Counted from the first letter of the stretch, positions 3,256-58,241 are shown. The stretch: DNA of 64,000 nt from Thermoanaerobaculia bacterium (GCA_035498405.1 DATKAE010000032.1:35195-99194), one strand, 5' to 3'. The notes: generated by a model not told the origin, from the letters alone. Translations and numbers: made by a program.

Positions 3256-4203
3256 ATGCCTCCGCGAAAGAGAAAGAAACAAGCCGACTCCGCCTCGCGG
3301 GGCCTCTCGGCGCCCGAGGTGGCGACAGGGTCGGCTCCGGCGAGCCTCACGGCGCTTCGCGAAGCGATCGAGGGGGACGGCGGCTCGGTCCTCGCCGCCT
3401 ACCGGGACCCGCTCGGCGGCCACTGGCAGCTGTTCGCCGCGCTACCCATCGAGCGTGTCGAGCCGACTCCGTTCCAGCGCGACCTCTCCGAAGCCCACGT
3501 CACGCGTCTGGCCCGCGTCGTCGATGGGCTCGGGCGATTCTTGGACCCGATCATCGCCGTCCGCACGCCGGAGGGCCAGTACTGGACGCCCAACGGCAAT
3601 CATCGGCTCTCCGCGATGAAGCGGCTCGGCGCCCGGTCCGTCGTCGCGCTCGTTCTGCCCGAGCGCGACGTCGCCTACAAGATCCTCGCGCTGAACACCG
3701 AGAAGGCGCACAACCTGCGGGAGAAGGCGCTCGAGGTCATCCGCATGGCGCGCGACCTCGCCGGACGGGATGGAGCGCCCGAGCGGCAATACGCGCTCGA
3801 GTTCGAGGAGGCGGCGTTTCTCACCCTCGGAATCTGTTACGAGAAGAACGGCCGGTTCGCGGGCGGCGCATACCATCCGCTTCTCAAGCGGGTAGACGAG
3901 TTTCTCGCCGAGCCCCTCCCCGGCGCTCTCGCCATTCGCGAGGGGCGGGCGGCGCGACTCCAGGAGCTCGAGGAGGCCGTGTCCGCCGCAATTCTGGGGT
4001 TGAAGGAACGCGGGTTCGAGAGCCCCTACCTGCGGGCATTCGTCGTCGCGCGGATCAATCCGTTGCGCTTCTCCAAGGCCGAGAAGCCCTCTTTCGACGG
4101 GACGCTCGAGAAGATGATCACGGCCGCGAAGAAGTTCAAGCCCGAATCGGTCAAAGCCGAGCAGGTCGCCCGAGCCGCGGGGGCCCCGGAGGAGACTTCG
4201 TAA
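3256..4203 (+). CDS. ParB/Sulfiredoxin-like nuclease-domain protein with an uncharacterised C-terminal domain
   Basis: N-terminal basic tract (PPRKRKKQ). ParB N-terminal domain signature (IERVEPTPFQRDLSEAHVTRLARVV...IIAVRTPEGQYWTPNGNHRLSAMKRLG) is followed by a roughly 170-aa helical C-terminal region. Confidence 0.6.
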   Translation: MPPRKRKKQADSASRGLSAPEVATGSAPASLTALREAIEGDGGSVLAAYRDPLGGHWQLFAALPIERVEPTPFQRDLSEAHVTRLARVVDGLGRFLDPIIAVRTPEGQYWTPNGNHRLSAMKRLGARSVVALVLPERDVAYKILALNTEKAHNLREKALEVIRMARDLAGRDGAPERQYALEFEEAAFLTLGICYEKNGRFAGGAYHPLLKRVDEFLAEPLPGALAIREGRAARLQELEEAVSAAILGLKERGFESPYLRAFVVARINPLRFSKAEKPSFDGTLEKMITAAKKFKPESVKAEQVARAAGAPEETS

Positions 4204-4259
4204 CCGAAGAACGACGCGCGGGTCGGTCGGTTGCTGTCGCGCCGGGACATAATCGGTCC

Positions 4260-5309
4260 ATGATCGTGGTCCCCCACCCCTTCGGACTCCACCGCAGCCT
4301 CGATCCGCCGGGAGTGCTGCCCCAATCGGCCCGGCGGCTCGACTCGACGCCGCGTGCTCTCGAGAACGAAATCGCCGTGGCCGTTCGCGCCCTGAACGTC
4401 GACTCCGCCTCCTTCCGGCAGATGCGCGAGACGGAGCGATCGACCGGCGAAACGGTCGAGCAGCAGGTGCTTCGCATCGTCGGCGAGCGCGGGAAGATGC
4501 AGAACCCGGTCACCGGCTCGGGCGGGATCTTCTTGGGCGAGGTCCGCGAGGTCGGCGCCCGGCATCCGGCCGCCGGAAACCTCCGGCCGGGAGAGCGGAT
4601 CGCGTCGCTCGTTTCGCTCTCCTTGACGCCGCTGTCCATCCAACGCATCAAGGCCGTGATCGCGTCCTCCGAGAGGATCGAGCTCGAGGGAACGGCGATT
4701 CTCTTCGAGCGTACCCTCTGGGCGAGGCTCCCCGGCGATTTTCGCGAGGAAGTCGCGCTCGCCGCTTTCGACGTGGCGGGGGCACCGGCCGCCGTTCTGC
4801 GCCGGGCGGGCGCGGACCAGACGGTCGTCGTGCTCGGAACGGGGAAGGCCGGCCTCCTCTGCCTGGCTGCGGCGCGCGAGGCCGTCGGGCCCGCGGGCAA
4901 GGTCTTCGCGGTCGACCCGTCGGAGGCCGCCTCGGCCCGGGCTCGGGGCGTCGGCGACGCGGACGCCGTCTTCACGATCGACGCCCGGGACCCCATCGCC
5001 GTTCATTCGGCGCTCCAGGAGGCGACGCGGAGCGGTCTCGCGGACTTGGTCGTCAATGCGGTCAACGCCCCGGGGACCGAGATCGCCAGTGTGCTCGCTT
5101 CGAAGGAGGAGGGAACCGTTCTCTTCTTCGGCATGGCGACCTCCTTCCAGGCCGCGGCCCTGGGCGCGGAAGGCCTGGCGCACCCGGCGACTCTTCTGAT
5201 CGGCAATGGCTACGTTCCGGGGCATGCCGAAGCGGTCCTGAACCTGCTCCGCCGCCGCCCGAGGCTGCGAACCGCCTTCGAGTCGCTCTGCTCGCTCGGT
5301 CCGCCTTGA
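4260..5309 (+). CDS. kdd: L-erythro-3,5-diaminohexanoate dehydrogenase (lysine fermentation pathway)
   Basis: 349 aa. N-terminal region (NEIAVAVRALNVDSASFRQ, MQNPVTGSGGIFLG) resembles the Kdd family. A central Rossmann motif VVVLGTGKAGLLCLAAA is present. It lies immediately upstream of kamDE-kal-kce. Confidence 0.6.
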   Translation: MIVVPHPFGLHRSLDPPGVLPQSARRLDSTPRALENEIAVAVRALNVDSASFRQMRETERSTGETVEQQVLRIVGERGKMQNPVTGSGGIFLGEVREVGARHPAAGNLRPGERIASLVSLSLTPLSIQRIKAVIASSERIELEGTAILFERTLWARLPGDFREEVALAAFDVAGAPAAVLRRAGADQTVVVLGTGKAGLLCLAAAREAVGPAGKVFAVDPSEAASARARGVGDADAVFTIDARDPIAVHSALQEATRSGLADLVVNAVNAPGTEIASVLASKEEGTVLFFGMATSFQAAALGAEGLAHPATLLIGNGYVPGHAEAVLNLLRRRPRLRTAFESLCSLGPP

Positions 5310-6238
5310 GCGAAGCGGCGCGCGCCCTGACGGAGCGGATCCTCGCCGCCCAGTCCCGACGGGTGGCGTTCCTCGGCCTCGCCAAGAACGCGGGAAAGAC
5401 GACGGCCCTCGTCGCGACGCTCGGCGAGCTGTCCCGCGTCGGGATCGCCGCGGGCGCGACGTCCGTCGGGCGCGACGGCGAGGACTTCGACGCCTTGACC
5501 GGCGAGCCCAAGCCTCGATTCCGCCTTTGGCCGGGCCAGCTCGTGGCCTCGGCCGAAAGCACGCTCGATGGGACGACCCTCTCCTTGACGGTGCTGGCGC
5601 GGCTTCCCTTTCCGACCCGCTTCGGGCCTGTCGCCGTCGCTCGCGTCGGAACGCCCGGTGAGCTCGAGGTGATGGGGCCAACGACGGCGTCGCAGACGGC
5701 GCAGACCGCCTCGGCCCTCGAGGCCGCGGGAGCCCGCGTGGTATTGCTCGACGGCGCCTTCGGCCGAAGGGCATTCGCTTCGGCGCGAGTGGCCGACGGA
5801 ATCGTCCTCGCGGTCGGAATGTCGGCCGGGCGGAGCCTGGAGAGTGTCCTCGAAAGGGCGCGCTTTGCCGCCGACTTGATTCAGTTGCCGACGAACTTCG
5901 CCGGCCGCCGCCGGACGATCGACGGAGCGCTGACCGACGAGCTGCTCCACGAGCTGCCACCGGAGCCCGGTGAAACTCTCGTGGCCCAGGATTTCGCCTC
6001 GGTCTTTCTCTCCGCGTCGGGGGTCCGAGACTTGAGGCAACGAGGCATCGGCCTGGCAGTCGAGCGACCGGCTCGCCTGATCGCGGTCACGGCGAACCCC
6101 TCGGCGCCGGGGCGCCCTCCCCTGCCCGCCAGGGCGTTCTTCGAGGCGCTCGCCGGCACTCTGCCGGGCATCGCGATCTTCGACCTGGAGGCGAGTCTGT
6201 CGAGCGTCGAGCCGCGAGCGGGAGAGAAGGACCGATAA
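5306..6238 (+). CDS. P-loop NTPase with deviant Walker A (CobQ/BioD/MinD-ParA-like nucleotide-binding fold), function unknown
   Basis: TTG start overlaps the kdd stop (TTGA). N-terminal VAFLGLAKNAGKTTALVATLGEL resembles KGGxGKTT-type deviant Walker A; a possible Walker B lies at RVVLLDGAF. Family assignment is tentative. Confidence 0.45.
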   Translation: MSEAARALTERILAAQSRRVAFLGLAKNAGKTTALVATLGELSRVGIAAGATSVGRDGEDFDALTGEPKPRFRLWPGQLVASAESTLDGTTLSLTVLARLPFPTRFGPVAVARVGTPGELEVMGPTTASQTAQTASALEAAGARVVLLDGAFGRRAFASARVADGIVLAVGMSAGRSLESVLERARFAADLIQLPTNFAGRRRTIDGALTDELLHELPPEPGETLVAQDFASVFLSASGVRDLRQRGIGLAVERPARLIAVTANPSAPGRPPLPARAFFEALAGTLPGIAIFDLEASLSSVEPRAGEKDR

Positions 6239-6261
6239 GGGCGCGACAACGGCCCCATCCG

Positions 6262-7206
6262 TTACCAGCTGACGCGCAACGCGGCCCCATCGGGAATGGG
6301 AACGACCTCGAGCGTCGTCTTCGGCGCGGCCGTCTCGACACCGGAAGTTTCCGCGCGGTGGCGCCGGACGAGAAAGCGCCCCGTCGCCGTGGCGAAGAGG
6401 GCCCCGGTGACGACGTCGCTGAAGAAGTGCGCCCTGTCGTTGATCCGGTCGCAGGCGACGACGAACGCGAGCCCGTAGGCGAGGGTAGGGATGATCCACC
6501 CGGGCGCGCGCATCGCGATCACGGAGGACACGGCGAAGGCCTGGGTCGCGTGGCCCGAGGTGAAGGAGTTGTGCCCGGAGAAGGGGTCGAAGATCGTTTC
6601 CCCATTGGACTGGTTCGGCCGATAGCGGCCGGCGACCGGCTTGATCACCAGGTTGGTGAAGGCTCCCGCGATGATCGCCGTCTCGAGCGCGTCTCGTCCC
6701 ATGTCCCGCACATCGCTGTCCCCGGCCACGAGGCCGATGGCCAGAAGCCCGCCGGCCACGGCAAATCCGCCACCCGCGCCGTACCAGGAGGTCCCGCTCG
6801 AGACGCTGTTGGTGAAGTTTGACCGGTGCTTCGCGAACAGGTCGTAGACGGCCTTATCGGACCAGAAGGCGCCCCCGATCATCGCGGCCGCGCCCACGGC
6901 GTGCCAGCCGTCTCGAGCGTCCCAGTGAAAGGGCGCCACCACGAGAGCGGCGGTGTCCGAGCCGTAGCGCTTCGCCTCGTTCCAGAGGGCATTGCCGACC
7001 ACCTTCAAGACCGGGGGCTTGGCCGGAGAGGCAGGGGCCTGCTCCGATTGGCCGGTTTCGACCGGGTCGAAAGCCGGGCAATCCTCTAGCTCGACGGCCG
7101 CCGCACGGCTGGAGACGAGGAGAAGCACGAGGAAAGTGAGAAATTCGGATCGGGCCCGAGGCCACCGCGCCGCGGACCACAAACCCAACCCGCTACTCGT
7201 TGGCAA
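6262..7206 (-). CDS. secreted PAP2-superfamily phosphatase (class A acid phosphatase-like)
   Basis: Signal-peptide-like N-terminus (FLTFLVLLLVSSRAAAV). All three PAP2 motifs are present: KPVAGRYRP (KX6RP), FTSGHAT (PSGH) and DRAHFFSDVVTGA (SRX5HX3D). Confidence 0.75.
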   Translation of the reverse strand: MPTSSGLGLWSAARWPRARSEFLTFLVLLLVSSRAAAVELEDCPAFDPVETGQSEQAPASPAKPPVLKVVGNALWNEAKRYGSDTAALVVAPFHWDARDGWHAVGAAAMIGGAFWSDKAVYDLFAKHRSNFTNSVSSGTSWYGAGGGFAVAGGLLAIGLVAGDSDVRDMGRDALETAIIAGAFTNLVIKPVAGRYRPNQSNGETIFDPFSGHNSFTSGHATQAFAVSSVIAMRAPGWIIPTLAYGLAFVVACDRINDRAHFFSDVVTGALFATATGRFLVRRHRAETSGVETAAPKTTLEVVPIPDGAALRVSW

Positions 7207-7282
7207 GACTCGCCCGCCTCGGAATACGCCAACCCGATCCGGTGTGCCTGTATTTCCGGGCCCCGGCTATACTGCCCCGTCG

Positions 7283-8842
7283 ATGCCCCCCAAGCTCGGT
7301 CTTTCGGCGGAGCGAATCGAGAACTGCCGGCGCCTCGCCGGGAAAGTCGCCGACGGTGTTCGAAGGGAGACGGAGCCGTTCACCACCGTTTCCACCGAAC
7401 GCGCGGTCTTGCGACTCCTGGGCGTCGATGGGGTGGATGAGCAGGACGTTCCGATCCCCAACCGAGTCGTCGAGTCCCTGCGGGCGACGGGCAAGCTCGC
7501 CCGCGGCGCCGCCGTGTGGCTGGGAAGCGCGTTGGCGGCCGGAGACTCGGGCCCGACAGAGGCCGCACGGCGGCTCTCGGATCCGTCCCAGGCGAAGGGA
7601 ATCTCGGAGCATCCGCGGTGGCGAGAGGCGCTCGCCCCACTGGTGGCTTCGACCCTCGGACGCATCCGGGGCAACGCCGCCGAACGCCGGCGGCGCCTGG
7701 CGGCGCACCCGCCGGACGAAGAGCCGCTTCTGTACGCCATCGTCGCCACGGGAAACATCTACGAAGACATCATTCAGGCCGAGGCGGCGGCCCGCGCCGG
7801 CGCGCAGTGCATCGCGGTCATCCGATCGACCGCGCAGTCGCTGCTCGACCACGTCCCTCACGGAGCGACCACCAGCGGCTTCGGCGGGACCTTCGCGACC
7901 CAGGAAAACTTTCGCCTCATGCGGGCGGCGCTCGATCGGATCGAGCCAGAGATCGGGCGCTCCGTGCGCCTGGTCAACTACTGCTCGGGACTGTGCATGC
8001 CCGAGATCGCGGCCATGGGGGCCTTCGAGCGCCTCGACATGATGTTGAACGATGCCCTCTACGGCATCATCTTCAGGGACATCAATCCCTTCCGCACGCT
8101 GATCGACCAGAACTTTTCCCGTCGGATCAACGCCGCGGCCGGTATCGTGATCAACACGGGGGAAGACAACTATCTGACGACCGCCGACGCCGTCGAGCAG
8201 GCGCCGGCGGTGCTCGCCTCTCAGTTCATCAACGAGCGTTTGGCCCTGGACGCGGGGCTCGAGCGCTGGCAAATCGGCCTCGGGCACGCCTTCGAGATCG
8301 ACCCGGAGCTCGAGGATGGCCTTCTCCTCGAGATCGCCCAGGCCGAGGCGGCTCGCGAGATTTTCACCGAGTCGCCGCTCAAGTACATGCCGCCGACCAA
8401 GCACATGACGGGCAACGTCCTGCGCGGCTACCAGCAGAACGCGCTCTTCGTGCTCACGTCCGTCGCGACGGGACAGTCGATCCACCTGCTCGGCATGCTG
8501 ACGGAGGCCCTCCACACGCCGCTGCTCTCGGACCGGTGGCTGGCGATCGACCAGGCGAAGACGATCCGCACGAACGCCCGGCACCTCTCCGAGGAGATCG
8601 CCTTCGCGCCGCACGGCCGGATCGTCCGCCGCGCGCACGAAGTCCTCGAGGGAGCCGAGGCGCTCCTCGAGCGAATCGCCGGCCAGGGGCTTTTCGACGC
8701 GCTCGCCTCGGGCGTCTTCGCCGACACGCGACGGCCGCGCGAGAGCGGACGCGGCCGGGAGGGCGTTGTCGAGCGGCATCCGGAGTATTCGAACCCCTTC
8801 CGGGAGGCTTGGGACCGCGAGCCCGCGGGGGCGGCCTCGTGA
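7283..8842 (+). CDS. kamD: lysine 5,6-aminomutase alpha subunit
   Basis: 519 aa from an in-frame ATG inside track ORF 6992..8842. It is collinear with KamD-family proteins (PF09043-like region ...[15 protein letters not shown]...[49 protein letters not shown]...). Size matches KamD (about 515-520 aa). Confidence 0.8.
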
Positions 8843-9606
8843 GCGCGCCGCGGCGCGACCCGTCTCGCCTGCGTCCGTACGGCGACAAATGGAACGACGG
8901 CGTCGTACAGGTTTCCTTCACGCTTCCCTTGCCGCACTCGGGCCTGGCGATCGAAGCCGCCAAGCGGTACGCCGGCAAGATGGGCATTCGCGACCCCTAC
9001 GTGACGCTCGCCCAGCCGGTCGCGCCCGAATTCACGTTCTTCATCGTGTACGGCAAGGCGGTCCACGAAGTCGACGCGACCGCGATCTCGGCCGAAGAGG
9101 CCGCGGCGCCCGATCTCGGCCGGGAAGAAATCGACGCGGAAATCGCCAAGAGGTTCGGCCGGCGTCTCGTCGTTCTCGGCTGCGCGCTCGAGTCGGACGC
9201 TCATACGGTGGGCATCGACGCGATTTTCAATCCGAAGGGGTTCGCCGGCGACTATGGGCTCGAGCGGTACGCGGGGTTCGATGCGCGAAACCTCGGCGCC
9301 CAGGTGCCGGTCGAGAGGCTCGTTCGCCTGGCCCGCGACGCGAAGGCCGATGCCATCTTGGTCTCGGCCACGGTCACGCAGAACGAGATTCACGTCAGGC
9401 ACCTGACGGATCTGGTCGACATGCTGGAGGCCGAGCGCCTGCGCGACGACCTGATCCTGGTGGCGGGCGGCGCGCGCCTCGACCACGCGCTCGCCAAGGA
9501 GCTCGGCTACGACGCGGGGTTCGGGCCGGGCACGACGCCGGGACGGGTCGCCGCCTTCCTACTCGAGGAGATGACCCGCCGCCGGGCGGGGCCGGGGCCG
9601 AGTTGA
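8839..9606 (+). CDS. kamE: lysine 5,6-aminomutase beta subunit (B12-binding)
   Basis: GTG start overlaps the kamD stop (GTGA). 255 aa. A B12-binding Rossmann-like region is present ([24 protein letters not shown]...[15 protein letters not shown]...[10 protein letters not shown]). Size and position are typical of KamE. Confidence 0.8.
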
Positions 9607-9995
9607 CGAACGAGAAGGTGCAGCTGCGGCTGCGCGTTGGGGCGGAGCAGGCCCACTACGGCGGCGGGCTCGTCGACGGCGCCTATCTGTTGAAGCTCTT
9701 CGGCGACGCGGCCACGGAGTTGCTCGTCCGGCACGACGGCGACGAGGGGCTCTTCCGGGCCTACTCATCGGTCGATTTTCTGGCGCCGGTCGTGGCGGGC
9801 GATTACCTGGAGGTCGAGGCGGAGCTTCTCCGGGTCGGGCGGACCTCGCGCGAGATGCGCTTCGAGGCGCGCAAGGTCATTACGCCCGCCGGCGGCGCCG
9901 CCTCCTCCTCGGTCCCTGTCGACCCGCCCGTCGTGGTCGCGCGGGCCACGGGCACCTGCGTGGTCCCGCTCGGACGCCAGAGGCGGAAAGCTTGA
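9603..9995 (+). CDS. kal: 3-aminobutyryl-CoA ammonia-lyase (hotdog fold)
   Basis: TTG start overlaps the kamE stop (TTGA). 130 aa. [68 protein letters not shown]...FEARKV matches the Kal family nearly residue by residue. Confidence 0.8.
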
Positions 9996-10816
9996 GCGAG
10001 GAGGTCGTCATCACGGTTGCCGGCGTGGGGGCGGAGGTCACCCGCACCCAACAACCGAGCCTGCCGCTGCTGCCGCCGGAGGTCGGGGAGGAGTACCGCC
10101 GGGCGCACGAGGCCGGTGCCGCGATCGGCCACATTCACGGACGAAGACCCGACGGCACGCCGACCCAGGATCTCGCGACCTTCCGCGACTATTCGCAGGC
10201 GATCCGGGCGCGCTGTCCGATCATCCAGCAATTCTCCACCGGCGGCGCGGTCGGCATGAGTGTGGAGGAGCGCATCGCCGCGCTGGAGCTCCGGCCGGAG
10301 ATGGCGACGCTCACGCTCGGAACCTGCAATTTCGGCGACGACGTCTTCGAGAACTCGCTCCCGACGATTCGGACGATCCTCGAGCGCATGCGCAAGTTCG
10401 GCATCACGCCGGAGCTCGAGATCTTCGACGATGGCATGCTCGCCACCGCCGACGTGCTCCTTGCGAAGGGGCTGCTCACCGTCCCGCTCCATTTCGACTT
10501 CGTGTTGGGCGTGCCGGGAGCCGCCGCCGCCACACCCGAGAACCTGCTTCACTTCGCCCGGTCGATTCCGGCCGGCTGCACGTGGACGGTCGCGGGAATC
10601 GGCCGGCGCCAGACCGCCATGGCCACTCTGGCCGTCGCCATGGGCGGGCACGTGCGGGTCGGCTTCGAGGACAACATCTACTACCGCCGGGGGGAGCTCG
10701 CGGACTCCAACGCCCGCTTCGTCGAGCGCGTGGCGCGGATTGCCCGGGAAGTGGGGCGCGAGCCGGCCACGGTCGAACAGGCCCGGCACATCCTGCATTT
10801 GCCCGCTGCCGCGTGA
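9992..10816 (+). CDS. kce: 3-keto-5-aminohexanoate cleavage enzyme (BKACE/DUF849)
   Basis: TTG start overlaps the kal stop (TTGA). 274 aa. BKACE hallmarks are present: ITVAGVGAE...[76 protein letters not shown]. Confidence 0.85.
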
Positions 10817-12192
10817 GCACTGCGGCCTCAGTCGTTCCGGCCGGGGAGCTGCGCCGCGGACTGAACCTCTGGGACACGACGCTGCTCGTGCTCGGGCTGG
10901 TGTTGGGCGGCGGAATCTTCCTGACGCCTTCCTCGATCGCGCAGGCCCTTCCTTCCTCCAAGGCGATCCTCGCGGCCTGGGCGGTCGGCGGTTTGCTTTC
11001 GATCGCGGGTGGGCTCGTCTACGCGGAGCTGGGTGCCCTGATGCCGCAACCCGGCGGCATGTACCTCTACATCCGGGAGGCGTTCGGTTCGATGCCGGCT
11101 TTCCTGTACGCATGGGTCGCCTACTTCGTGATCTTGGCCGGCGCCGGCGCCGCGGTCTCCGTGGGATTCGCGGAGTATCTGTCCGTCTTCTTCCCGGCGC
11201 TCGGCACCAAGCGCGTGCTCTTCGGGTTGGCGGGCCTTCCGATTTCGGCCGGGCAGCTCACGGCGGTCGCGGCCACTCTCCTGCTTTCGGCCACCCATTA
11301 CGTGGGCGTGAAAGAGGGCTCCCGGATTCAGGGATTCTTCACACTCCTGATCGTGCTGGTGTTGGCGGGACTGGTCGTTGGCGGGGTCTTCGCCGCTGCG
11401 CCTGTCGCCGCGGCCAGCCCCGAGACCTCGACGCCGGTCACGGCCGCCGCCTTCGGCGGGGCAATGGTGGCGGTCTTCTGGTGTTACTACGGCTGGAACG
11501 AGATCGCCGCGGTGGCCGGCGAGGTGGCGAGGCCGCAACGCAATCTTCCCATCGCCTTGATCGCCGGGACGGGCCTCGTGACGTTCCTCTATGTCGGCGC
11601 GAACGCCGTGTTTCTCAAGGCCATTCCCGTGGCCGAATTGGCGAACACGGCGCAGCCGGCCGCGGTCGCCTCCGCGCGGCTCTTCGGCGGCGGCTCGACC
11701 GTGGCCATCGCCCTGGCAATTACCGCGGCGGCGTTCGGCTGCGTCTCCGCCGGCATCGTCCCGGGCCCGCGCATCGTGTTCGCCCTTTCCCGGGACGGCT
11801 TGTTCCCCAAGCCGTTCGGACGCGCGCATCCCCGCTTCCGCACGCCGTCCTTCGCCCTGGTCGTGCAGGCGGTTTGGATGTCCGTCCTGTGTCTGTCGGG
11901 GCGGTACGATCAGCTCTACACGTACGCGACCTTCGCCGTCATTCTGGCCTACACGGCGAGCGGAATCTCTCTCTTCGTCTTCCGCCGCTCGCGGCCGGAC
12001 GCCCCCCGACCCTACCGCTGTTGGGGATATCCCGTGATTCCGGCCGTCTTCGTCGCCACTTCTGCCCTCCTCGCGATCAACACCGTGCGCCAGCAGCCCC
12101 TGGAGACGGCGGCCGGGTTGGGCATCTTGCTCGCCGGAGTGCCGGTCTATTTCTGGATGCGCTCGCGAGCCGAGCAACGGAGGATCCCATGA
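10813..12192 (+). CDS. APC-superfamily amino-acid permease (probable lysine/basic amino-acid transporter)
   Basis: GTG start overlaps the kce stop (GTGA). 459 aa with about 12 TM segments. APC-family signature region is GGGIFLTPSSIAQAL...AGGLVYAELGALMPQPGGMYLY. Confidence 0.8.
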   Translation: MSTAASVVPAGELRRGLNLWDTTLLVLGLVLGGGIFLTPSSIAQALPSSKAILAAWAVGGLLSIAGGLVYAELGALMPQPGGMYLYIREAFGSMPAFLYAWVAYFVILAGAGAAVSVGFAEYLSVFFPALGTKRVLFGLAGLPISAGQLTAVAATLLLSATHYVGVKEGSRIQGFFTLLIVLVLAGLVVGGVFAAAPVAAASPETSTPVTAAAFGGAMVAVFWCYYGWNEIAAVAGEVARPQRNLPIALIAGTGLVTFLYVGANAVFLKAIPVAELANTAQPAAVASARLFGGGSTVAIALAITAAAFGCVSAGIVPGPRIVFALSRDGLFPKPFGRAHPRFRTPSFALVVQAVWMSVLCLSGRYDQLYTYATFAVILAYTASGISLFVFRRSRPDAPRPYRCWGYPVIPAVFVATSALLAINTVRQQPLETAAGLGILLAGVPVYFWMRSRAEQRRIP

Positions 12193-14633
12193 GAAGAGCC
12201 CTTACGTTTCTCACCGTCTCGCTGCTGGCTCAGGCACCAGCGACCCCTCCGGCGGAGGTTCTGCGGGGCTTTTCGCCCGAGCGAACCCGCTGGCAACGAG
12301 AGTTCGAACGACGTCTTCTCGCCCTGCCCACTCCGGCGGAATCTGACGCCCTGCTGCGGCAGCTCACACGCGAACCGCATCTGGCCGGCACGCCCGGCAA
12401 CGAGCGCGTGGCCCGCTTCATCGCCGACGAGTTCCGGAAGGCGGGGCTCGAGGTCTCGACACCGGCCTACGACGTGCTGCTGTCCTACCCCAAGAGCGCC
12501 CGGCTCGAGATCGCGGGCGAGCCGGGCGTGGACCTGGGCCGGTCCGAGGAGCCGATCGCTTCCGATCCGGACACGGCGATCGCTCCCACCCTGCCGCCCT
12601 GGAACGCGTACGCGCCCGCCGCGGATCTGACCGCGGAGGTCGTCTACGTCAATCGCGGCAGCGCGGAGGACTACGACCGTCTGGCGGCACTGGGCATTGA
12701 CGTGCGGGGGCGTATCGCTCTGGCGCGGTACTTCGGCGGATACCGCGGCGGAAAATCGCTCGAAGGCGAGAAGCGCGGTGTCGCCGCCGTCCTGGTCTAC
12801 TCCGACCCGATCGACGATGGCTGGTTCAAGGGAGAGGTCTACCCGCCGGGTCCGTGGGGCCCGCCGTCGCACTTTCAGCGCGGGGCGGACGTCTACGACT
12901 TCCTCGTGCCGGGCGACCCCTTGACCCCCGGCTGGGCGTCGACCGAGGGGGCCCGAAGGATTTCCGAGGCCGAATCCACGATCCTGCCGAAGATCCCGAT
13001 GATGCCCCTTTCGGCGCGCGACGCCGCCGAGATCTTGAAGCGCCTCAAGGGCCCCGCGGTTCCCGAGGGATGGCAAGGACTCGCGATGGCGGACACCTAC
13101 CGACTCGGTCCGGGCCCCGTCCGCCTGCACCTGTCCGTCGAGAACACCCGCGAGCGCCGGACGATCCGCAACGTCATCGGCGTTCTGCGGGGGACCGACG
13201 AGCCCGACCGACAGGTCCTGCTTTCCAACCATCATGACGCCTGGGTCTACGGCGCGGTCGATCCCGCCTCGGGCACCGCGACGATGATTTCGCTCGCCCG
13301 GGCGCTGGGAACCCTGGCCAAGCAGGGTCTGCGCCCGCGCCGCACCATCGTCTTCGGCAACTGGGATGCCGAGGAGTACACGCTGACCGGATCCACCGAA
13401 TGGGGCGAGGAGAACGCGGCCGACCTCGCCCGTAACGCAGTCATCTGCATCAACGTGGATGCATCGACTTCCGGCCGGAGCTTCTCGGCTTCCGCGTCGC
13501 CCCTCGTCTTTGCCGCGATCCGAGAGACCGCCGCCGACGTCCCAGATCCCGGTTCCCCGGGCAAGTCCATCGCCGACACGTGGCGCGAGAATGCCGGGCA
13601 AACCAACGTTCGGAGCTACGCGACGGGAGCCACGGGCGACGCCCTACCCATCGCCGTTCTGGGCAGCGGCTCCGACTACACCGTTTTTTTCAACCACCTC
13701 GGGGTTTCTTCCGCCGACCTCGTCTTCGACGGCCCTTACGGCGTTTACCACTCCGTCTACGACGACTACGCGTGGATGGCGACGGCGGGAGATCCCGGCT
13801 TTCTCTACCATGCGGGGATGGCGCGGTACGCGGGAGTGCTGGCCCTGCGCTTCGCCAACGCCGACGTCCTTCCTTTCGACGCTCGCGCCTACGGCAACGA
13901 GATCGCGCGGTACGCGGAAGAACTGGCCCGGGACGCACGGGCGGCCTCCCTGGTTGCCGACCTCTCGGCGCTCTCCCGCCAGGCCTCGGCCTGGAGCCAG
14001 GCGGCGGGGACCGCGCAGACCGGATTCTTGAAGAGGGCCCAGACCGGCAACTTGCCGGCCACGACCCGGGCGGCTGTCAACGACTGGCTGCTGTCGATGG
14101 AACGGGCCCTGCTCGATCCCCAGGGTCTGCCGGAGCGGCCCTGGTTCCGACACCTCGTCTATGCGCCGCTCCCCTCCTACGCGGCCGAGACGCTTCCGGC
14201 GGTGCGCGAGGCCGTCGTTGCCGGGAATGCCGCCGGAGCCCGGCGAGAGATCGCGAAGCTCCAGGAAAGGCTCGCCGCCGCAACCACCGCGGCCCGGTCG
14301 ATCGAGGCCGTCCCGGCGGCTGCGGGTAAGCCGGCCGCCTCGCAACAGACTCTCTTCGTGGGAACCATCACGGATGCCGAGTGCGGCGGGAACCACCGGC
14401 CCATGCTTCGCAAAGGGAACATGGGAGCGAATGCGCGCGAATGCACTCTAAAGTGCGTCGCGAAGGGAACGCCCTTCGGATTCGTCGAATCGAGCTCGAA
14501 GCACTTCTACCTGATCGACGATCGAGACCGCGTCGCGAGATTCGCGGGGCGGGCCGTGCTCCTGCGAGGGCGGGCGCGCGGCGACACCATCCAGGTTGAA
14601 TCGATCCAGGGAGCGCCCGAGGACGGTCGCTGA
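12189..14633 (+). CDS. secreted M28-family peptidase, PSMA/glutamate-carboxypeptidase-II-like (PA domain + M28 + TfR-like dimerisation) with about 95-aa Cys-containing C-terminal extension
   Basis: ATG overlaps the permease stop (ATGA). Signal peptide MRRALTFLTVSLLAQAPA. M28 metal-binding regions are present (LSNHHDAWVYGAVDPASGTA, VFGNWDAEEYTLTGSTEW, GSGSDYTVF, YHSVYD). The C-terminal tail is CGGNHRPML...ECTLKCVAKG. Confidence 0.8.
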   Translation: MRRALTFLTVSLLAQAPATPPAEVLRGFSPERTRWQREFERRLLALPTPAESDALLRQLTREPHLAGTPGNERVARFIADEFRKAGLEVSTPAYDVLLSYPKSARLEIAGEPGVDLGRSEEPIASDPDTAIAPTLPPWNAYAPAADLTAEVVYVNRGSAEDYDRLAALGIDVRGRIALARYFGGYRGGKSLEGEKRGVAAVLVYSDPIDDGWFKGEVYPPGPWGPPSHFQRGADVYDFLVPGDPLTPGWASTEGARRISEAESTILPKIPMMPLSARDAAEILKRLKGPAVPEGWQGLAMADTYRLGPGPVRLHLSVENTRERRTIRNVIGVLRGTDEPDRQVLLSNHHDAWVYGAVDPASGTATMISLARALGTLAKQGLRPRRTIVFGNWDAEEYTLTGSTEWGEENAADLARNAVICINVDASTSGRSFSASASPLVFAAIRETAADVPDPGSPGKSIADTWRENAGQTNVRSYATGATGDALPIAVLGSGSDYTVFFNHLGVSSADLVFDGPYGVYHSVYDDYAWMATAGDPGFLYHAGMARYAGVLALRFANADVLPFDARAYGNEIARYAEELARDARAASLVADLSALSRQASAWSQAAGTAQTGFLKRAQTGNLPATTRAAVNDWLLSMERALLDPQGLPERPWFRHLVYAPLPSYAAETLPAVREAVVAGNAAGARREIAKLQERLAAATTAARSIEAVPAAAGKPAASQQTLFVGTITDAECGGNHRPMLRKGNMGANARECTLKCVAKGTPFGFVESSSKHFYLIDDRDRVARFAGRAVLLRGRARGDTIQVESIQGAPEDGR

Positions 14634-14634
14634 C

Positions 14635-16116
14635 CTAGCGCGCGCCCGCGACGTCCCGGACGACCGCTTCGGTCACCGCCAGGCCGAAGCGGACGTTCGC
14701 GAGTGACAGCCGCTCGTCGTCGCCGTGACTTCGGTCATCCTCCGAGGAAAGGCGGAAGGGCTCGAAGCCGTAGACGACCATCCCGATCTCCCGCAGGTAT
14801 GTGGCGTCCGTGGTCGAGGTCAGCGGGGGCGTCAGGATCGGAACCCCCGGCTCGAACCGATCGCGCGCTCTCTGGATTGCGCGGAAGAGGTCCGTATCCG
14901 TGGACGAGACCGTCGCCGGCGACTGCTGCAGCACCTGGAAGCGCAGGGTGGGATCCTTCGAGGCCTCTTGCAGCGAGGCGCGGACCGTTTCCGGGTCTTC
15001 TCCCGGCAGCAGACGGCAGTCGAGGGTGGCCGAGGCCTCTCCCGGAATCACGTTGACCTTCTCGCTGCCCGATAGCCCCGTGATCGAGACGGTGGTCCGA
15101 AGGCAGGCGTTGCGAAACGGGTCGGCGAGCAGCAGCCGCCGGCTCTCGGGGTTGGACAGGGCCGCCCGGGGGTCGGCGAGCGCCCGGGCGAGCGCGCCCG
15201 ACTCGAGCCGCGAGAGTTGCCGAAAATAGTCTTCGACCGCCGGGATCAAGCGAATCGGCGTCTCGTAGGCGAGGAGACGGTCGAGGGCGCGGACCAGGCG
15301 GGCCACCGCTCCCTCCGGTTCGGGGATCGAGGCGTGGCCGGCCTTTCCGGTCGCGACCAGACGCAGCCAGAGCACGGACTTCTCCGTGACGTCGACGTTC
15401 CAGGCCTGTGTGCGACCCTCCTCGACGGAGATGGTCGCCCCTTCGGTCAGGGCGAACTCGGCATCTCGCAAACGGTCCCGATACCGGGCGATCATCGCGC
15501 GCACGCCGTTTTCCTTCCCTTCCTCCTCGTCGGCGGTTCCCAGAAACACCACGTCCCGATCGAGCTTCGCTCCCGAGCGCTTGAGCAAGAGGAGCGTCAT
15601 CAAGTGGCAGATCGCGGTGCCCTTCATGTCGGTTGCTCCGCGTCCCCAGACATAGCCGTCACGGATCTCCCCGGAAAACGGGGGCACGGTCCACCGCGCG
15701 GCGTCCGCCGGCACGACGTCCATGTGGCTGACCAGCAAGAGCGGCCGCTTCTTGCCGTTTCCCGGCAGTCGTCCGAGGACGTTGGCCCTGCCGTGGCCCA
15801 AGTCGAAGATCTCCGCCTCGATCCCCTCGGCCTGCAGGACGCCGAGCAGGAAGTCCGCCGCCGGGCGCTCGCGGCCCGGCGGATTCGTCGTGTCGATCTT
15901 GAGATAGGTCTGCAGGAGGGCGGTCGCCTCGCGCGCCGCGCTCTCCAGGTTCGGCTCGGCGGCGACGGAGTGACCCGTGCCCGCCGTCAGCAGAAGCGCG
16001 AGGGACGCCAGGATCGCCGCGATGCGAGGAACGCGACCGATGCTCGCCGGTGGCGTGAGCGCCGGGTGTCCCGGCCGGGAGACGAGCGCGCCCCTATCGC
16101 GTGACAGAAGCGCCAC
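14635..16116 (-). CDS. secreted M20-family metallopeptidase (carboxypeptidase/ArgE-DapE-like)
   Basis: M20 motifs are present: LVSHMDVVPA, GRGATDMKG, FLGTADEEEG, HAS...; signal peptide IAAILASLALLLTAG. Its stop is 1 nt from the convergent M28 stop. The GTG start at 16116 overlaps the upstream gene's 3' end, so the exact start is uncertain. Confidence 0.75.
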   Translation of the reverse strand: MALLSRDRGALVSRPGHPALTPPASIGRVPRIAAILASLALLLTAGTGHSVAAEPNLESAAREATALLQTYLKIDTTNPPGRERPAADFLLGVLQAEGIEAEIFDLGHGRANVLGRLPGNGKKRPLLLVSHMDVVPADAARWTVPPFSGEIRDGYVWGRGATDMKGTAICHLMTLLLLKRSGAKLDRDVVFLGTADEEEGKENGVRAMIARYRDRLRDAEFALTEGATISVEEGRTQAWNVDVTEKSVLWLRLVATGKAGHASIPEPEGAVARLVRALDRLLAYETPIRLIPAVEDYFRQLSRLESGALARALADPRAALSNPESRRLLLADPFRNACLRTTVSITGLSGSEKVNVIPGEASATLDCRLLPGEDPETVRASLQEASKDPTLRFQVLQQSPATVSSTDTDLFRAIQRARDRFEPGVPILTPPLTSTTDATYLREIGMVVYGFEPFRLSSEDDRSHGDDERLSLANVRFGLAVTEAVVRDVAGAR

Positions 16117-16837
16117 CCGAGCGCGCGTTCGTCACGCCGGGAGAAGCGACGACCGGCGACCACCAGGACAGAATTCGTTTCACGTACTGAACGGTCTCGC
16201 GGTACGGAGGCACACCCCCGAAGGAGTCCACCGCGCTCTCGCCGGCGTTGTAGGCCGCGAGCACGAGCTCCGGTCGCGCCTCGAACCGGTCCATGAGCTC
16301 CCGAAGATAACGAACGCCACCCCGCACGTTCGCGCGGGGGTCGAACGGCTTGCGGACGCCGAGGCGACGGGCGGTCGACGGCATGAGCTGCATCAAGCCC
16401 CGCGCCCCCTTGCGCGAGACGCTACGGGGCTCGTAGTTGGATTCCGCCCGGATGACCGCCGAAACCAGCGCGGCGTCGACGTTGTAGCGCCGCGCCTCCG
16501 CCTCGATGATCGCGTCGAACGGCGTCCCGTAGAGAGGCCGGCGATGCGCCGCGAAGGAGAGGTCGTAAACCGGAGGGGGTCCTTCCGGCCGGGGAATCTC
16601 CACCTTCTCCGAGACCTCGACCTCGTCGTCTAGGATTCGCTCGACTCGATCCAGATTCACCCGGTAGCTTCCGCCCCCGGGCAGAGAGATCTCGAGCTCC
16701 TCCCCCAGGACTCGGTACCCGGCCGCCTTGACCACCCGACCCTCCTGGAAGAGGATGAGCTCACCGCGCGAGGGCAAGGCGAGGAGAAGGCCCCCGAAAA
16801 GGATCCCCGCGGAAAGACGGCGTCGCATCCGGACAAT
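16094..16837 (-). CDS. secreted lytic transglycosylase (SLT domain)
   Basis: Internal ATG gives signal peptide MRRRLSAGILFGGLLLALPS. SLT catalytic region is ...AESNYEPRSVSRKGARGLMQLMPSTA...AYNAGESAV. Confidence 0.8.
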   Translation of the reverse strand: MVRMRRRLSAGILFGGLLLALPSRGELILFQEGRVVKAAGYRVLGEELEISLPGGGSYRVNLDRVERILDDEVEVSEKVEIPRPEGPPPVYDLSFAAHRRPLYGTPFDAIIEAEARRYNVDAALVSAVIRAESNYEPRSVSRKGARGLMQLMPSTARRLGVRKPFDPRANVRGGVRYLRELMDRFEARPELVLAAYNAGESAVDSFGGVPPYRETVQYVKRILSWWSPVVASPGVTNARSGGASVTR

Positions 16838-16845
16838 TTTACGGA

Positions 16846-17868
16846 TTAGCGCTCGGCCTTGCCACGACCCGACCTCCCCGCCCGGGGGTGGAATCGGTCG
16901 TAAACCGTCTGCAGGTGCGCGCGCGACACCAGGGTGTAGATCTGGGTGGTCGAGATGTCCGTGTGCCCCAGCATCATCTGCAGGGACCGCAGGTCCGCCC
17001 CGTGCTGGAGCAGATGGGTCGCAAAGGAGTGCCGCAGCCGGTGCGGAGTCAGCCGGCCTCGCAACCCGACCCCGCGGCCATACCCCTCGATGAGCTGCCA
17101 GAGCCGCTGCCGCGTCATCGCCCGCCCTCGAACCGACAGAAAGAGCGCCGGGGCACCGCGTCGGTCGAGTCCCGGGCGAACCGTCTGCAGATACCTTCGC
17201 AGCCACCGCGCGGCGGACTGGCCAAAGGGCACGAGGCGCTCCTTGCCTCCCTTTCCCGTCACGCGCAGCATCCGCTCCTCCAGGTCCACCCTCTCGCGCG
17301 GCAGTTGGGCGATTTCCGATACCCGCAGGCCGGAGGCGTACAACAGCTCGAGCATCGCGCGGTCCCTCACTCCGAGAGGGCTCGAATCGTCCGGCGCCCG
17401 CAGGAGCGTCTCCACCTCCCTCTCGGTCAGCGGCTTGGGAAGGGCGAGCCCGGTTCGCGGACTGTGTAGGTGGGCCGTCGGATCTTCGGCGTGTTGCAGA
17501 TGCGCCGCCGCGAACGCATAGAAGCTGCGCAGGGCCGAGAGGGAGCGCGCCGCCGACCGGGACGAGATTCCGCGCGACCGTTGCTCACGCAAGTAACGGG
17601 AGAGTTCCTCGCGGGCGACACGCGAGGAAAGCCTTTGCCGCCGGAGCCATTGCCCGTATGCCGCCAGGTCGCGGCCGTAGGCGGCGACACTGGCCGGCGA
17701 CAGCCCGCGCTCGACCGAGAGGTGATCTAGATACGTCGGGAGCTCGCGATCGAGAAAATCGCCGCCCGTGCGGGACTCTTTCCCGCACCGCCCGGAGCGT
17801 CGGGGAGGGACGGACTCGCTACGCCCGGTAGGCAAGACGGGCCGATGGCGCGGCCGTCGCGTCGTCAA
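16846..17868 (-). CDS. xerD: tyrosine site-specific recombinase XerD/XerC-like (true start probably about 17811 or later)
   Basis: N-terminal SAM-like domain (FLDRELPTYLDHLSVERGLSPASVAAYGRDL). Catalytic domain carries R..HxxR..Y (LRHSFATHLLQHGADLRSLQMMLGHTDISTTQIYTLV). Confidence 0.75.
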   Translation of the reverse strand: MTTRRPRHRPVLPTGRSESVPPRRSGRCGKESRTGGDFLDRELPTYLDHLSVERGLSPASVAAYGRDLAAYGQWLRRQRLSSRVAREELSRYLREQRSRGISSRSAARSLSALRSFYAFAAAHLQHAEDPTAHLHSPRTGLALPKPLTEREVETLLRAPDDSSPLGVRDRAMLELLYASGLRVSEIAQLPRERVDLEERMLRVTGKGGKERLVPFGQSAARWLRRYLQTVRPGLDRRGAPALFLSVRGRAMTRQRLWQLIEGYGRGVGLRGRLTPHRLRHSFATHLLQHGADLRSLQMMLGHTDISTTQIYTLVSRAHLQTVYDRFHPRAGRSGRGKAER

Positions 17869-19166
17869 TGGGCCGCTTCGGCCGGCGCGAGGCTCGCGAC
17901 GACGGCGAGGATCTCCTCATCGGACAAGACCTGGTCACTCTGCTTGGCTCTCTGGAAGACGGCGTTGATCAGTTCCGGACGGGCCTCGATTCCGTGCGTC
18001 TCGAGCCAGCACTGCACGTTCGAAACGCCGCTCATCGGCCCCACCTCGATCGTCTGCCGCCGCCCGACCATCGCCGCAGGCACTCCCGAATAGACTCGGT
18101 CGGCCAACCAGTCGTCGCCCTTCTTGCGCGCCTTGATGATCGCCGCGGCGTGAACTCCCGTCCCCGTGCGAAAGGCGTCGCGGCCCACGATGGGATAGTT
18201 GTCGGGGATCCGCACGCCCGTGGCCTCCGAGACTCGGGTGCAGTACTCGCTCAACTTCGTCAGGTCGCGATCGATCCATCCGAGCAGCTGCAAGTTCACC
18301 AGCAGCTGATCCATCGGAGTGTTGCCCACCCGTTCGCCGATCCCGAGGGCGCAACCGTGCACGCGGTGGGCACCGGCCTCGAGGGCCCACAGCGCGTTGG
18401 TCACGCCGAGGCCGCGATCCTGATGCCCGTGCCAGTCGATCCGGACCTCCGGACCCACCTCGTCCACGACGCCCGAGACGAAGCGGATGACGTTGCGAAC
18501 CCCGTTGGGTGTGGCGTGGCCCACGGTGTCGCAGACACAGACCCGGCTGGCTCCGGCACGAATCGCCACCGTGTAAAGGGCCCGGATGTGGTCGGGATGG
18601 GCGCGGGTCGTGTCTTCCGTGACGTACATCACGGGCAAGCCCTCGCGCACCGCCATCGAAACGGCATCTTCGGTCAGGCGCAGCAAACGATCGAGGTTCC
18701 AATCCTCAGCGTACTGCCGAATCGGGGAGGACCCGATGAAACAGGCCACCTCGACCGGGATGCCCACGCGCTGCGAGATCTCGACGATCGGAAGGATGTC
18801 CGCCGCGACCGTCCGCGCCGCGCAGTTCGGCCGGATCTTCATCCGAGACGTCTGGATCTCGCGAACCAGCCTCTCGACGGTCGAGACCACATGGGGCCCC
18901 GCCCCCGGCAGGCCGACGTCTGCCGACTCGATTCCGAGCGACTCCATCAGGTGCAGGATGGCGACTTTCTGGTCGATCGAGGGACTGCGCACCGAGGGGG
19001 ATTGGAGACCGTCGCGCAGGGTCTCGTCGTCGAGCTCGACCTTGCCACGGGCCGGAGAGACCGCTCCGCCGGCTCGGTTCCAGTCGTAGATGAGTTCGGA
19101 TTCGGATGGGTGCACGCCCATTTTCGCCTTCGGCATCAGTTTATGCCGGCGTCGGACGCCGATCAA
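17865..19166 (-). CDS. 2-isopropylmalate synthase-family (LeuA type-2/actinobacterial-yeast-like catalytic core) protein lacking the C-terminal regulatory domain
   Basis: HMGL-like TIM barrel: ELDDETLRDGLQSPS, HGHQDRGLGVTNALWALEAGAHRVHGCALGIGERVGNTPMDQLL. About 420-433 aa. Track start at 19166 is TTG; alternative ATGs lie at 19136 and 19121. Confidence 0.6.
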   Translation of the reverse strand: MIGVRRRHKLMPKAKMGVHPSESELIYDWNRAGGAVSPARGKVELDDETLRDGLQSPSVRSPSIDQKVAILHLMESLGIESADVGLPGAGPHVVSTVERLVREIQTSRMKIRPNCAARTVAADILPIVEISQRVGIPVEVACFIGSSPIRQYAEDWNLDRLLRLTEDAVSMAVREGLPVMYVTEDTTRAHPDHIRALYTVAIRAGASRVCVCDTVGHATPNGVRNVIRFVSGVVDEVGPEVRIDWHGHQDRGLGVTNALWALEAGAHRVHGCALGIGERVGNTPMDQLLVNLQLLGWIDRDLTKLSEYCTRVSEATGVRIPDNYPIVGRDAFRTGTGVHAAAIIKARKKGDDWLADRVYSGVPAAMVGRRQTIEVGPMSGVSNVQCWLETHGIEARPELINAVFQRAKQSDQVLSDEEILAVVASLAPAEAAH

Positions 19167-21580: not shown

Positions 21581-22363
21581 TCAGCGTCCGGTGAAGCGGG
21601 GGGCGCGCTTTTCCAGGAACGCCGTCATGCCTTCCTTCATGTCCTCGGTTGCCGCGCAGAGGCCGAAGAGCGTCGCCTCCAGCACGAGCCCCTCGGCGGT
21701 CGGGACCTCGATGCCCCGGCGGATCGCCTCCATCGCATACCGGCAGGCGGCCGGCCCGTTGGCGGCGATCTTTCGCGCGAGCTCCTTGGCTCCTGCGAGC
21801 GCTTGACCGGCCGGAACCACGCGGTTCACGAGCCCGATGCGGTGCGCCTCCGAGGCCGTCACGCCTTTCTCGGCCGTGAGAATCAGCTCCATCGCGCGCG
21901 CCACGCCAACCAGCCGCGCGAGGCGCTGGGTTCCGCCGTAACCCGGAAGGATTCCCAGTGAGGTTTCCGGCAGGCCCATCTTCGCGTTCTCGGAAGCGAC
22001 TCGCAGGCAGCAGGCCAGCGCGAGCTCGAGCCCCCCGCCATAGGCATAGCCGTTGATCGCCGCAATCGTGGGGACACTCATATCCGCGAGCCGATCGAGC
22101 ACGGCTTGCCCGCGCAGAGCGTGCTCGCGGCCCTGGACCGGCGTCAGTTTCGCGAGCTCGCCGATGTCGGCGCCCGCGATGAAGGCCTTTTCCCCGGCGC
22201 CGGTGACCACGAGACAACGCAGGGACGGGTCCTCGGCCGCCTCGGCGAACGCCTCGTCTAAGGCCGCGATGACCTCCGCATTCAAGGCGTTCAGCTTCTC
22301 GGGACGATCCACCGTGACCGTGCGAACTCCCTCCTCCGTCTCGATTCTGACGTTCGGGCTCAT
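21581..22363 (-). CDS. crt: enoyl-CoA hydratase / 3-hydroxybutyryl-CoA dehydratase (crotonase)
   Basis: Crotonase-fold motifs: VVTGAGEKAFIAGADI, AAINGYAYGGGLELALACCLRVA, MGLPETSLGILPGYGGTQRL. Confidence 0.85.
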   Translation of the reverse strand: MSPNVRIETEEGVRTVTVDRPEKLNALNAEVIAALDEAFAEAAEDPSLRCLVVTGAGEKAFIAGADIGELAKLTPVQGREHALRGQAVLDRLADMSVPTIAAINGYAYGGGLELALACCLRVASENAKMGLPETSLGILPGYGGTQRLARLVGVARAMELILTAEKGVTASEAHRIGLVNRVVPAGQALAGAKELARKIAANGPAACRYAMEAIRRGIEVPTAEGLVLEATLFGLCAATEDMKEGMTAFLEKRAPRFTGR

Positions 22364-39897: not shown

Positions 39898-39918
39898 CCG
39901 GTGCGGAGAGAGAGGCGG

Positions 39919-41175: not shown

Positions 41176-41215
41176 CTTCGAGGACTAAAAACGCTCCATT
41201 GGATCTTAGCAAATT

Positions 41216-42202: not shown

Positions 42203-42230
42203 CGTCGCGGGTGCGAAAGCAGGGCGCTCC

Positions 42231-58189: not shown

Positions 58190-58241
58190 GCCCCGATTAT
58201 GAAGGACTCGATCGTCCGGATTCGACGTTCGACCGCCCGGC

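Follow-up and report, generated by a model that had tools for sequence, protein, structure and literature searches.

Gene clusters for lysine fermentation by way of beta-lysine and 3,5-diaminohexanoate are known from Fusobacterium nucleatum, Clostridium sticklandii and Intestinimonas, and a related cluster is described here from a Thermoanaerobaculia bacterium (GCA_035498405.1). The sequence is a stretch of 64,000 nt, DATKAE010000032.1:35195-99194, which is referred to as the window and has 65-70% G+C across its length; positions are counted from its first nucleotide. The five enzymes Kdd, KamD, KamE, Kal and Kce, and in addition a probable KamB, are shared with the clusters of these anaerobes and are 43-59% identical to them. 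In Alkalithermobacter paradoxus (locus L019) the gene order is kal-kce-atoDA-kdd-kamA-kamB-kamC-kamD-kamE-crt-hbd, and two Bacillota metagenome-assembled genomes (MAGs; L020 and L062) display the order kdd-kamA-kamB-kamD-kamE-kal-kce. The window order matches that of L020, L062 and a third locus, L093, with the exception of kamA, the gene for lysine 2,3-aminomutase. Compared with the lysine clusters of anaerobes, the window is without kamA, kamC and atoDA, and has genes for a LAT-type permease and an M28B peptidase that are translationally coupled downstream. Its crt, hbd and thiolase genes are found 7-10 kb away on the other strand, and a PAP2 gene lies between kamB and kamD.

The locus is best read, with a probability of roughly 0.6, as a chromosomal catabolic cluster of an uncultured member of the Acidobacteriota, most likely of the class Thermoanaerobaculia, that degrades lysine by the 3,5-diaminohexanoate (beta-lysine) route, with kamA supplied from elsewhere in the genome. 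Arguing for this are equivalog matches that pass and that set the enzymes apart from OraE and glutamate mutase as well as from the remaining BKACE clades, six 4-nt overlaps that continue through to the permease and M28 genes, and a block conserved in seven acidobacterial loci, with the permease wherever the sequence reaches it. The tree neighbours of KamD have the same gene order plus kamA, the crt, hbd and thiolase genes are confirmed and syntenic, an Opp-type peptide ABC transporter is also encoded in the window, and the physiology of the class is one of protein fermentation with formation of butyrate (PMC4056298).

An earlier interpretation of the same DNA, the sequence-only reading, had considered the host unusual for such a pathway. 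However kam genes are also found in Laceyella, Thermoactinomyces and Alicyclobacillus, which are aerobes, and in Asgard archaeal MAGs. Loci L063, L075 and L080, from Laceyella, Thermoactinomyces and Alicyclobacillus mengziensis, display kdd-kamA-kamB-kamC-kamD-kamE, with no kce or kal within 10 kb. The Asgard MAGs (Promethearchaeia or Promethearchaeum; L011, L014, L048 and L067) and an uncultured archaeon (L013) have KamD proteins of 53-55% identity. In L011, L013 and L014 kce, kdd, kamA and kamB are found beside kamD and there is no kamC; L048 and L067 have kamC matches instead. In addition, the pathway has already been reported in many phyla (PMC3994512), and Thermoanaerobaculum aquaticum, type species of the class, is strictly anaerobic and lives by fermenting proteinaceous compounds, with butyrate among its products (PMC4056298). 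Thus the host is less surprising than was first thought. A search for literature that links Acidobacteriota or Thermoanaerobaculia to the lysine pathway found none in the library that was searched.

Enzymes of the route and gene junctions

Genes from 3256 to 16116 were called with a third-position GC frame plot and a list of open reading frames (ORFs), and there is one clear gene per stretch. Identities were assigned by Pfam and NCBIfam scans, with the NCBIfam equivalog cut-offs as the pass mark, and were further checked by searches against solved structures (PDB). Coordinates and scores are in Table 1. The five enzymes that the sequence-only reading had recognized, Kdd, KamD, KamE, Kal and Kce, all reach their equivalog cut-offs, Kce barely. 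For Kdd, the KDD_N Pfam domain is annotated in the existing record of the product.

To KamD the OraE model gives 125 bits, as opposed to 734.5 with NF052384, and KamE displays 113.6 bits with OraE and 35.8 with glutamate mutase S, as opposed to 327.5 with NF052385. An identity as ornithine aminomutase or glutamate mutase, which the sequence-only reading had itself put forward as the challenge to its assignments, is ruled out by these profile hidden Markov model scores, those for OraE, OraS and glutamate mutase being far lower, and the KamD/KamE assignment stands. The best solved-structure match of KamE is the lysine 5,6-aminomutase beta subunit (278 bits), and the B12-binding motif DxHxxG is present as DAHTVG, aligned to the KamE of the PDB. 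The best match of Kce is the Cloacimonas Kce 2Y7D (258 bits). The two proteins align at the HxH and ED motifs, presumably the metal-binding and catalytic residues, and both motifs are conserved. Membership of Kce in another BKACE clade had also been raised, but other BKACE equivalogs score well under their cut-offs (243 against 350, and 213 against 430).

The probable kamB gene was missed in the sequence-only reading. It is positioned directly upstream of kamD, with PAP2 between them in the window, and has the same placement in other taxa. No solved-structure homologue of KamB was detected, and a literature search on KamB and KamC found nothing relevant. KamC is absent from the window and from the acidobacterial loci, and is likewise not found in L020, L062, L093 and Asgard loci.

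The family assignments support the following route as far as crotonyl-CoA. KamD and KamE, a B12- and pyridoxal phosphate (PLP)-dependent 5,6-aminomutase, would convert beta-lysine to 3,5-diaminohexanoate, with KamB as a probable reactivase subunit that aids them. Kdd would oxidize 3,5-diaminohexanoate to 3-keto-5-aminohexanoate, Kce would convert this compound and acetyl-CoA to acetoacetate and 3-aminobutyryl-CoA, and Kal would form crotonyl-CoA and ammonia from the latter. The nearby crt, hbd and thiolase genes may serve to carry crotonyl-CoA to acetyl-CoA; the locus does not encode an AtoDA/Bcd route to butyrate. At the entry to the route, the LAT-type permease coupled to kce may import lysine or beta-lysine, possibly by exchange, and a KamA encoded elsewhere in the genome would supply beta-lysine. 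The exported M28B and M20 proteins could be accessory, dispensable suppliers of free amino acids from peptides, and together with the Opp transporter may be part of a general peptide-scavenging lifestyle.

Six 4-nt start/stop overlaps are present in the sequence: TTGA at kdd/kamB, kamE/kal and kal/kce, GTGA at kamD/kamE and kce/permease, and ATGA at permease/M28. All overlaps by which kamD-kamE-kal-kce had been described as joined to the permease and M28 genes are among them, and the kdd/kamB overlap is additional. The placement of a convergent M20 gene directly behind M28 is likewise borne out, with 1 nt between the two stop codons, and family models agree with the earlier assignment of crt, hbd and thiolase on the other strand. 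Crt has 36% identity to the Crt from within the lysine cluster of Alkalithermobacter.

The PAP2 gene, which does not appear in the sequence-only reading, is on the opposite strand and parts kdd-kamB from kamD-kamE-kal-kce-permease-M28. Thus the cluster comprises at least two transcription units in the window lineage. At the kamB/kamD position PAP2 is found only in the window, L086 and L166; loci L005, L006, L088, L089, L167 and L168 are without it. It is a recent lineage-specific insertion that splits the cluster.

Conservation of the block and absence of kamA

The KamD protein is also encoded on soil metagenome contigs (ENA ERZ27256589 k141_1357099 of 211,727 bp, ERZ27256607, JGI 3300032782 and JGI 3300033004) that are 99.92-100% identical to the window. 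In GTDB, with one genome per species, close KamD relatives are found only in two Acidobacteriota MAGs (81% and 78% identity) and the rest are at or below 58%; metagenome contigs add four relatives of 79-85% identity. Orthologues of the permease, with 68-77% identity, are in the same gene block, and NCBI names their organisms either Thermoanaerobaculia bacterium or Acidobacteriota bacterium. Thermoanaerobaculia are the closest relatives that bear a name.

Seven related acidobacterial loci (L005, L006, L088, L089, L166, L167 and L168) were compared. The block begins with the ParB-like gene, a cyclase gene (in some loci), kdd, kamB, PAP2 (in some), kamD-kamE-kal-kce and the permease gene. It continues with M28 (in some), M20 on the opposite strand (in most), a small Cys-containing protein, SLT and XerD, and ends with the HMGL-like gene, an unassigned protein, crt, hbd, a small ORF and thiolase, which are syntenic in the relatives. 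The block displays 68-85% protein identity in the seven loci with all ORFs intact, which implies purifying selection. The permease gene follows kce in every related locus whose sequence reaches there; that of L088 ends inside the permease gene.

Synteny among relatives was considered as proof of functional coupling, but this was ruled out since XerD and SLT, unrelated housekeeping genes, are equally conserved; thus synteny at 68-85% identity is weak evidence of function. The stronger evidence that links the permease to the pathway is the 4-nt overlap of its gene with kce. The permease gene is also found beside kam genes only in the acidobacterial clade, and in 0 of approximately 160 loci from other taxa.

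In a neighbour-joining (NJ) tree of KamD, the acidobacterial clade is on a long stem, next to internal branches of very small length. Nearest to the clade is a group without KamC (L020, L062, L091 and L093), with the order kdd-kamA-kamB-kamD-kamE-kal-kce, and the acidobacterial order is the same minus kamA.

The permease is similar over its full length to the SLC7/LAT exchangers (BasC, xCT, LAT1, y+LAT). Among solved structures, xCT (185 bits) and BasC (184 bits) come closest, compared with 82 bits for AdiC, though the automatic name given by JGI is "APA basic amino acid/polyamine antiporter". It differs from the exchangers in that no curated substrate-level equivalog passed, i.e., none of the NCBIfam equivalogs reached its cut-off.

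The absence of kamA from the window, already observed in the sequence-only reading, is confirmed: tblastn with two KamA proteins and a CxxxCxxC motif scan were without a match. The sole CxxxCxxC motif in the window whose open frame is 150 aa or longer, CTRACGFC near position 34912 on the minus strand, is presumably that of lipoyl synthase. No gene with Radical_SAM and LAM_C domains is present among the Pfam matches of genes called over contig positions 74,210-156,333 (82 kb), and no KamA was found when the contig was extended by 10 kb at each end of the window. In a protein search with a Bacillota KamA, the matches listed are all at least 65% identical and are from other taxa, with no Acidobacteriota among them.

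A wider search made use of 50%-identity representatives, with matches sorted by high-GC amino acid composition, followed by a profile of high-GC KamA-like proteins. The profile detected one Acidobacteriota match, P0469, in another MAG, and two further high-GC matches, both from unrelated samples. KamA-family genes do occur in Acidobacteriota, as P0469 demonstrates. The neighbours of P0469 are an FGase-family gene, two D-Ala-D-Ala-ligase-like ATP-grasp genes, and GNAT and HDAC (deacetylase) genes, and the cluster looks biosynthetic rather than catabolic.

Clusters of this kind recur. A KamA-family radical SAM gene with two ATP-grasp (D-Ala-D-Ala-ligase-like) genes and GNAT is found in L169 (9201-15818), L170 (1-6419) and L171 (3755-7789), and FGase and a deacetylase domain are also present in L169 and L170. 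One Acidobacteriota MAG and one unrelated contig have the arrangement, and it looks like one that makes a beta-lysine-containing compound.

Peptidases and neighbouring genes

The M28 protein aligns with human glutamate carboxypeptidase II (GCPII, also PSMA or FOLH1; MEROPS M28B) with 368 bits, and the two have in common the PA, M28 and TFR-dimer architecture, the Zn site and Glu424. The window, L006 and L166 all keep the Zn ligands His377, Asp387, Glu425, Asp453 and His553 of GCPII and the catalytic Glu424. The residues that bind the alpha-carboxylate (Arg210, Tyr552 and Tyr700) are aligned and conserved as well. Lys699, by which GCPII holds the side chain of glutamate, is Ser in all three acidobacterial M28 sequences. 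The S1 arginine patch (Arg463, Arg534 and Arg536) is lost, with Ser or Ala, Asp, and Val at the respective positions. From these residues, M28B is very likely to be an active carboxypeptidase that is not glutamate-specific. Thus the term "PSMA-like" used in the sequence-only reading is appropriate for fold and catalytic residues but not for specificity, as Lys699 and the Arg patch are not kept.

The position of Asn257, which together with Lys699 recognizes glutamate in the S1′ site of GCPII, is Asp, Asn or Asp in the three sequences. The S1′ residues were considered as evidence of a specificity for lysine but were rejected as such, since Asp at 257 is not conserved (Asn in L166).

GCPII has a membrane anchor; the window M28 differs in having a bacterial signal peptide and a fused C-terminal Cys-containing domain. 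This domain comprises the last ~95 aa (about 14340-14633), with the pattern TDAECG..H.PM..KG.MG...REC...C.A.G..FGF, and no family match was found for it. The window and L166 have it as a fusion to M28, and it is a separate small protein with a signal peptide in L006 (about 17150-17418), L089 (about 16490-16774) and L167 (12847-13191). In L089 and L167 the Cys-containing protein is present without any M28 gene. For the M20 protein, the best NCBIfam matches are PRK09133 and PRK07906, both under their cut-offs.

Table 1. Genes of the cluster and of the crt-hbd-thiolase block, with supporting matches (scores in bits; NCBIfam cut-off after "vs").
Gene or product	Position	Strand	Match
ParB/Srx-like protein	3256-4203	+	weak matches only
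kdd, L-erythro-3,5-diaminohexanoate dehydrogenase	4260-5309	+	NF052381, 222.4 vs 200
probable kamB, P-loop subunit of lysine 5,6-aminomutase reactivase	5306-6238	+	NF052386, 208.3 vs 210
PAP2-family membrane phosphatase	6262-7206	-	PF01569, 67.5
kamD, lysine 5,6-aminomutase alpha subunit	7283-8842	+	PF09043; NF052384, 734.5 vs 600
kamE, lysine 5,6-aminomutase beta subunit (B12 and PLP binding)	8839-9606	+	NF052385, 327.5 vs 280
kal, ammonia-lyase acting on 3-aminobutyryl-CoA	9603-9995	+	NF052388, 168.2 vs 160; 4HBT fold
kce, enzyme for cleavage of 3-keto-5-aminohexanoate	9992-10816	+	NF052387, 382.2 vs 382
APC-superfamily permease, LAT/SLC7-like	10813-12192	+	AA_permease_2 (PF13520), 189.8
secreted M28B peptidase, glutamate-carboxypeptidase-II type	12189-14633	+	Pfam PA, M28 and TFR_dimer
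M20-family metallopeptidase or deacylase	14635-16116	-	PF01546 and PF07687; signal-peptide-like N-terminus
crt, short-chain enoyl-CoA hydratase (crotonase)	21581-22363	-	ECH_1, 226.6
hbd, 3-hydroxybutyryl-CoA dehydrogenase	22360-23220	-	NF005875, 391.9 vs 319; 3HCDH_N and 3HCDH domains
thiolase (acetyl-CoA C-acyltransferase)	23546-24727	-	TIGR01930, 467.7 vs 240.55

The sequence-only reading had its pathway locus begin at 3256, but the first gene encodes a ParB/Srx-like protein and no enzyme of the route. It has no Pfam match, and displays weak matches to a Noc N-terminal domain (22 bits) and to free serine kinase (E=0.04). The gene is 69-71% identical and syntenic in L005, L006, L088 and L089. 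Every related locus has it directly upstream of kdd, with a gap of only 10 bp to kdd in L166. The protein may have a regulatory role or be one more part of the cluster.

Adjoining the crt-hbd-thiolase block, a divergent DRE-TIM (HMGL-like) protein of 418 aa is encoded at 17865-19121 on the minus strand and is ~80% conserved in relatives. It resembles homocitrate and isopropylmalate synthases, with a score far under the cut-offs (212 against 517). Between this gene and crt are two paralogues of 388 and 390 aa (19180-20346 and 20402-21574, both on the minus strand) that are 48% identical and have no Pfam or NCBIfam match. One copy is found in L005, L089, L167 and L168, and two in L166.

Two regions are found at a greater distance. 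An Opp-type peptide ABC transporter, with a family-5 solute-binding protein and two permeases, is encoded at 54703-58189; it adjoins genes for a propeller protein of 725 aa and for a protein of 609 aa that weakly matches SpoIVB/S55 peptidases, and the whole minus-strand stretch (54703-62245) fits a peptide-scavenging lifestyle. The region that the sequence-only reading termed a sphingolipid-like cluster (37916-43436) consists of PAP2_3, a 387-aa protein without assignment, an NAD-dependent epimerase/reductase and two class I/II aminotransferases. Judging from the Pfam family, the aminotransferases are of the alpha-oxoamine-synthase type.

Interpretation of the locus

A number of observations weigh against a complete lysine pathway with a kamA elsewhere in the genome. 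In all seven related acidobacterial loci kamA is absent within 10 kb of the cluster. Besides the window, 81 loci have Kdd, KamD and Kce, and 75 of these also have KamA. The six that do not are four acidobacterial loci, L028 and L102; kamA is therefore present in 75/77 non-acidobacterial clusters, in contrast to the acidobacterial loci. As kamA was not located outside the locus either, the source of beta-lysine is unproven. The score of Kce is at its cut-off and that of KamB just under (Table 1). AtoDA (butyryl-CoA:acetoacetate CoA-transferase), which serves to activate acetoacetate and to release butyrate, has no tblastn match in the window or the acidobacterial loci; of 56 long loci from other taxa, 26 have AtoA. 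A search with Rfam detected no riboswitch in the window, and a promoter and terminator scan gave nothing above chance. The peptidases vary in their presence. In seven loci that reach the peptidase position, i.e., the window and six relatives, M28 is found in four (the window, L006, L166 and L168) and M20 in six (all except L006), and XerD and SLT are as syntenic with the block as these genes are.

The sequence-only reading proposed a module that liberates, imports and degrades lysine. For import, the permease is coupled to kce and occurs in each related locus that extends to it. For liberation, the counts for M28 and M20 are lower. XerD and SLT are equally syntenic. The module is plausible, but only partly backed. 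A possible, if somewhat doubtful, alternative is that the lysine pathway is real and that the peptidases, perhaps also the permease, are mere neighbours, with M28B and M20 as general secreted peptidases in a conserved neighbourhood. This would account for their patchy occurrence and for the HMGL-like gene, XerD and SLT being equally syntenic. In addition, the S1′ pocket of M28 is without a clear lysine signature (Asp or Asn at 257, Ser at 699), and in other phyla no APC, M28 or M20 gene is linked to kam clusters, with the exception of a few weak M20 matches. However the kce/permease and permease/M28 junctions are 4-nt overlaps, and all loci long enough to show it have M28, M20 or both.

The missing kamA may also be taken at face value. 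In a salvage of beta-lysine, the clade would have lost kamA, and external beta-lysine, free or freed from beta-lysyl or N-acyl-beta-lysine compounds by M20 and M28, would be imported by the LAT-type permease. In line with this, kamA is absent in 8/8 acidobacterial loci, the window included, and it is gone from the exact slot between kdd and kamB that it holds in the nearest KamD relatives. The permease is fused to the operon in the acidobacterial clade only, and M20 belongs to the broad ArgE/DapE deacylase superfamily. The biosynthetic-looking clusters of KamA, ATP-grasp and GNAT genes in another Acidobacteriota MAG and in one other organism suggest that beta-lysine compounds may be made in soil communities. 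On the other hand, the absence of kamA covers only 82 kb of contig and 10 kb on each side in the relatives, M28 and M20 are variably present, and the specificities of peptidases and permease are only putative. Also, free beta-lysine is not known to be abundant as a substrate in soil. Salvage, the chief rival, is considered unlikely, and we think it quite improbable that the Thermoanaerobaculia clade has truly lost kamA and scavenges the beta-lysine of others by way of M20/M28B and a dedicated LAT-type transporter. The absence of kamA could, in principle, also mean that the aminomutase and its partners act on another diamino acid, e.g., D-lysine or ornithine. KamDE enzymes also accept D-lysine. 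However the OraE and OraS models are far under those of KamD and KamE, and the intermediates to which Kdd, Kce and Kal are specific derive from 3,5-diaminohexanoate, with each of the three enzymes passing its equivalog cut-off. In addition, no OrtAB-type genes were found in the window, and another substrate is regarded as highly improbable.

The preferred interpretation thus remains degradation of lysine by the 3,5-diaminohexanoate route with KamA encoded at a distance. A well-known pathway is thereby found in a new host and with its locus arranged in a new way. Only one thing is truly puzzling, namely that kamA is missing from the locus throughout the clade. The beta-lysine route is extended to soil Acidobacteriota of the Thermoanaerobaculia type, in agreement with the fermentation of proteins by which the sole cultured member of the class lives. 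A locus that has a fused permease and is without kamA, kamC and atoDA poses the question of whether these bacteria use their own beta-lysine, made by a distant kamA, or that of others. If kamA is present elsewhere in the genome, this would be an ordinary split pathway, mainly useful for the annotation of soil MAGs. If beta-lysine is instead scavenged, the cluster would be the first module dedicated to beta-lysine catabolism, and its permease the first transporter assigned to beta-lysine.

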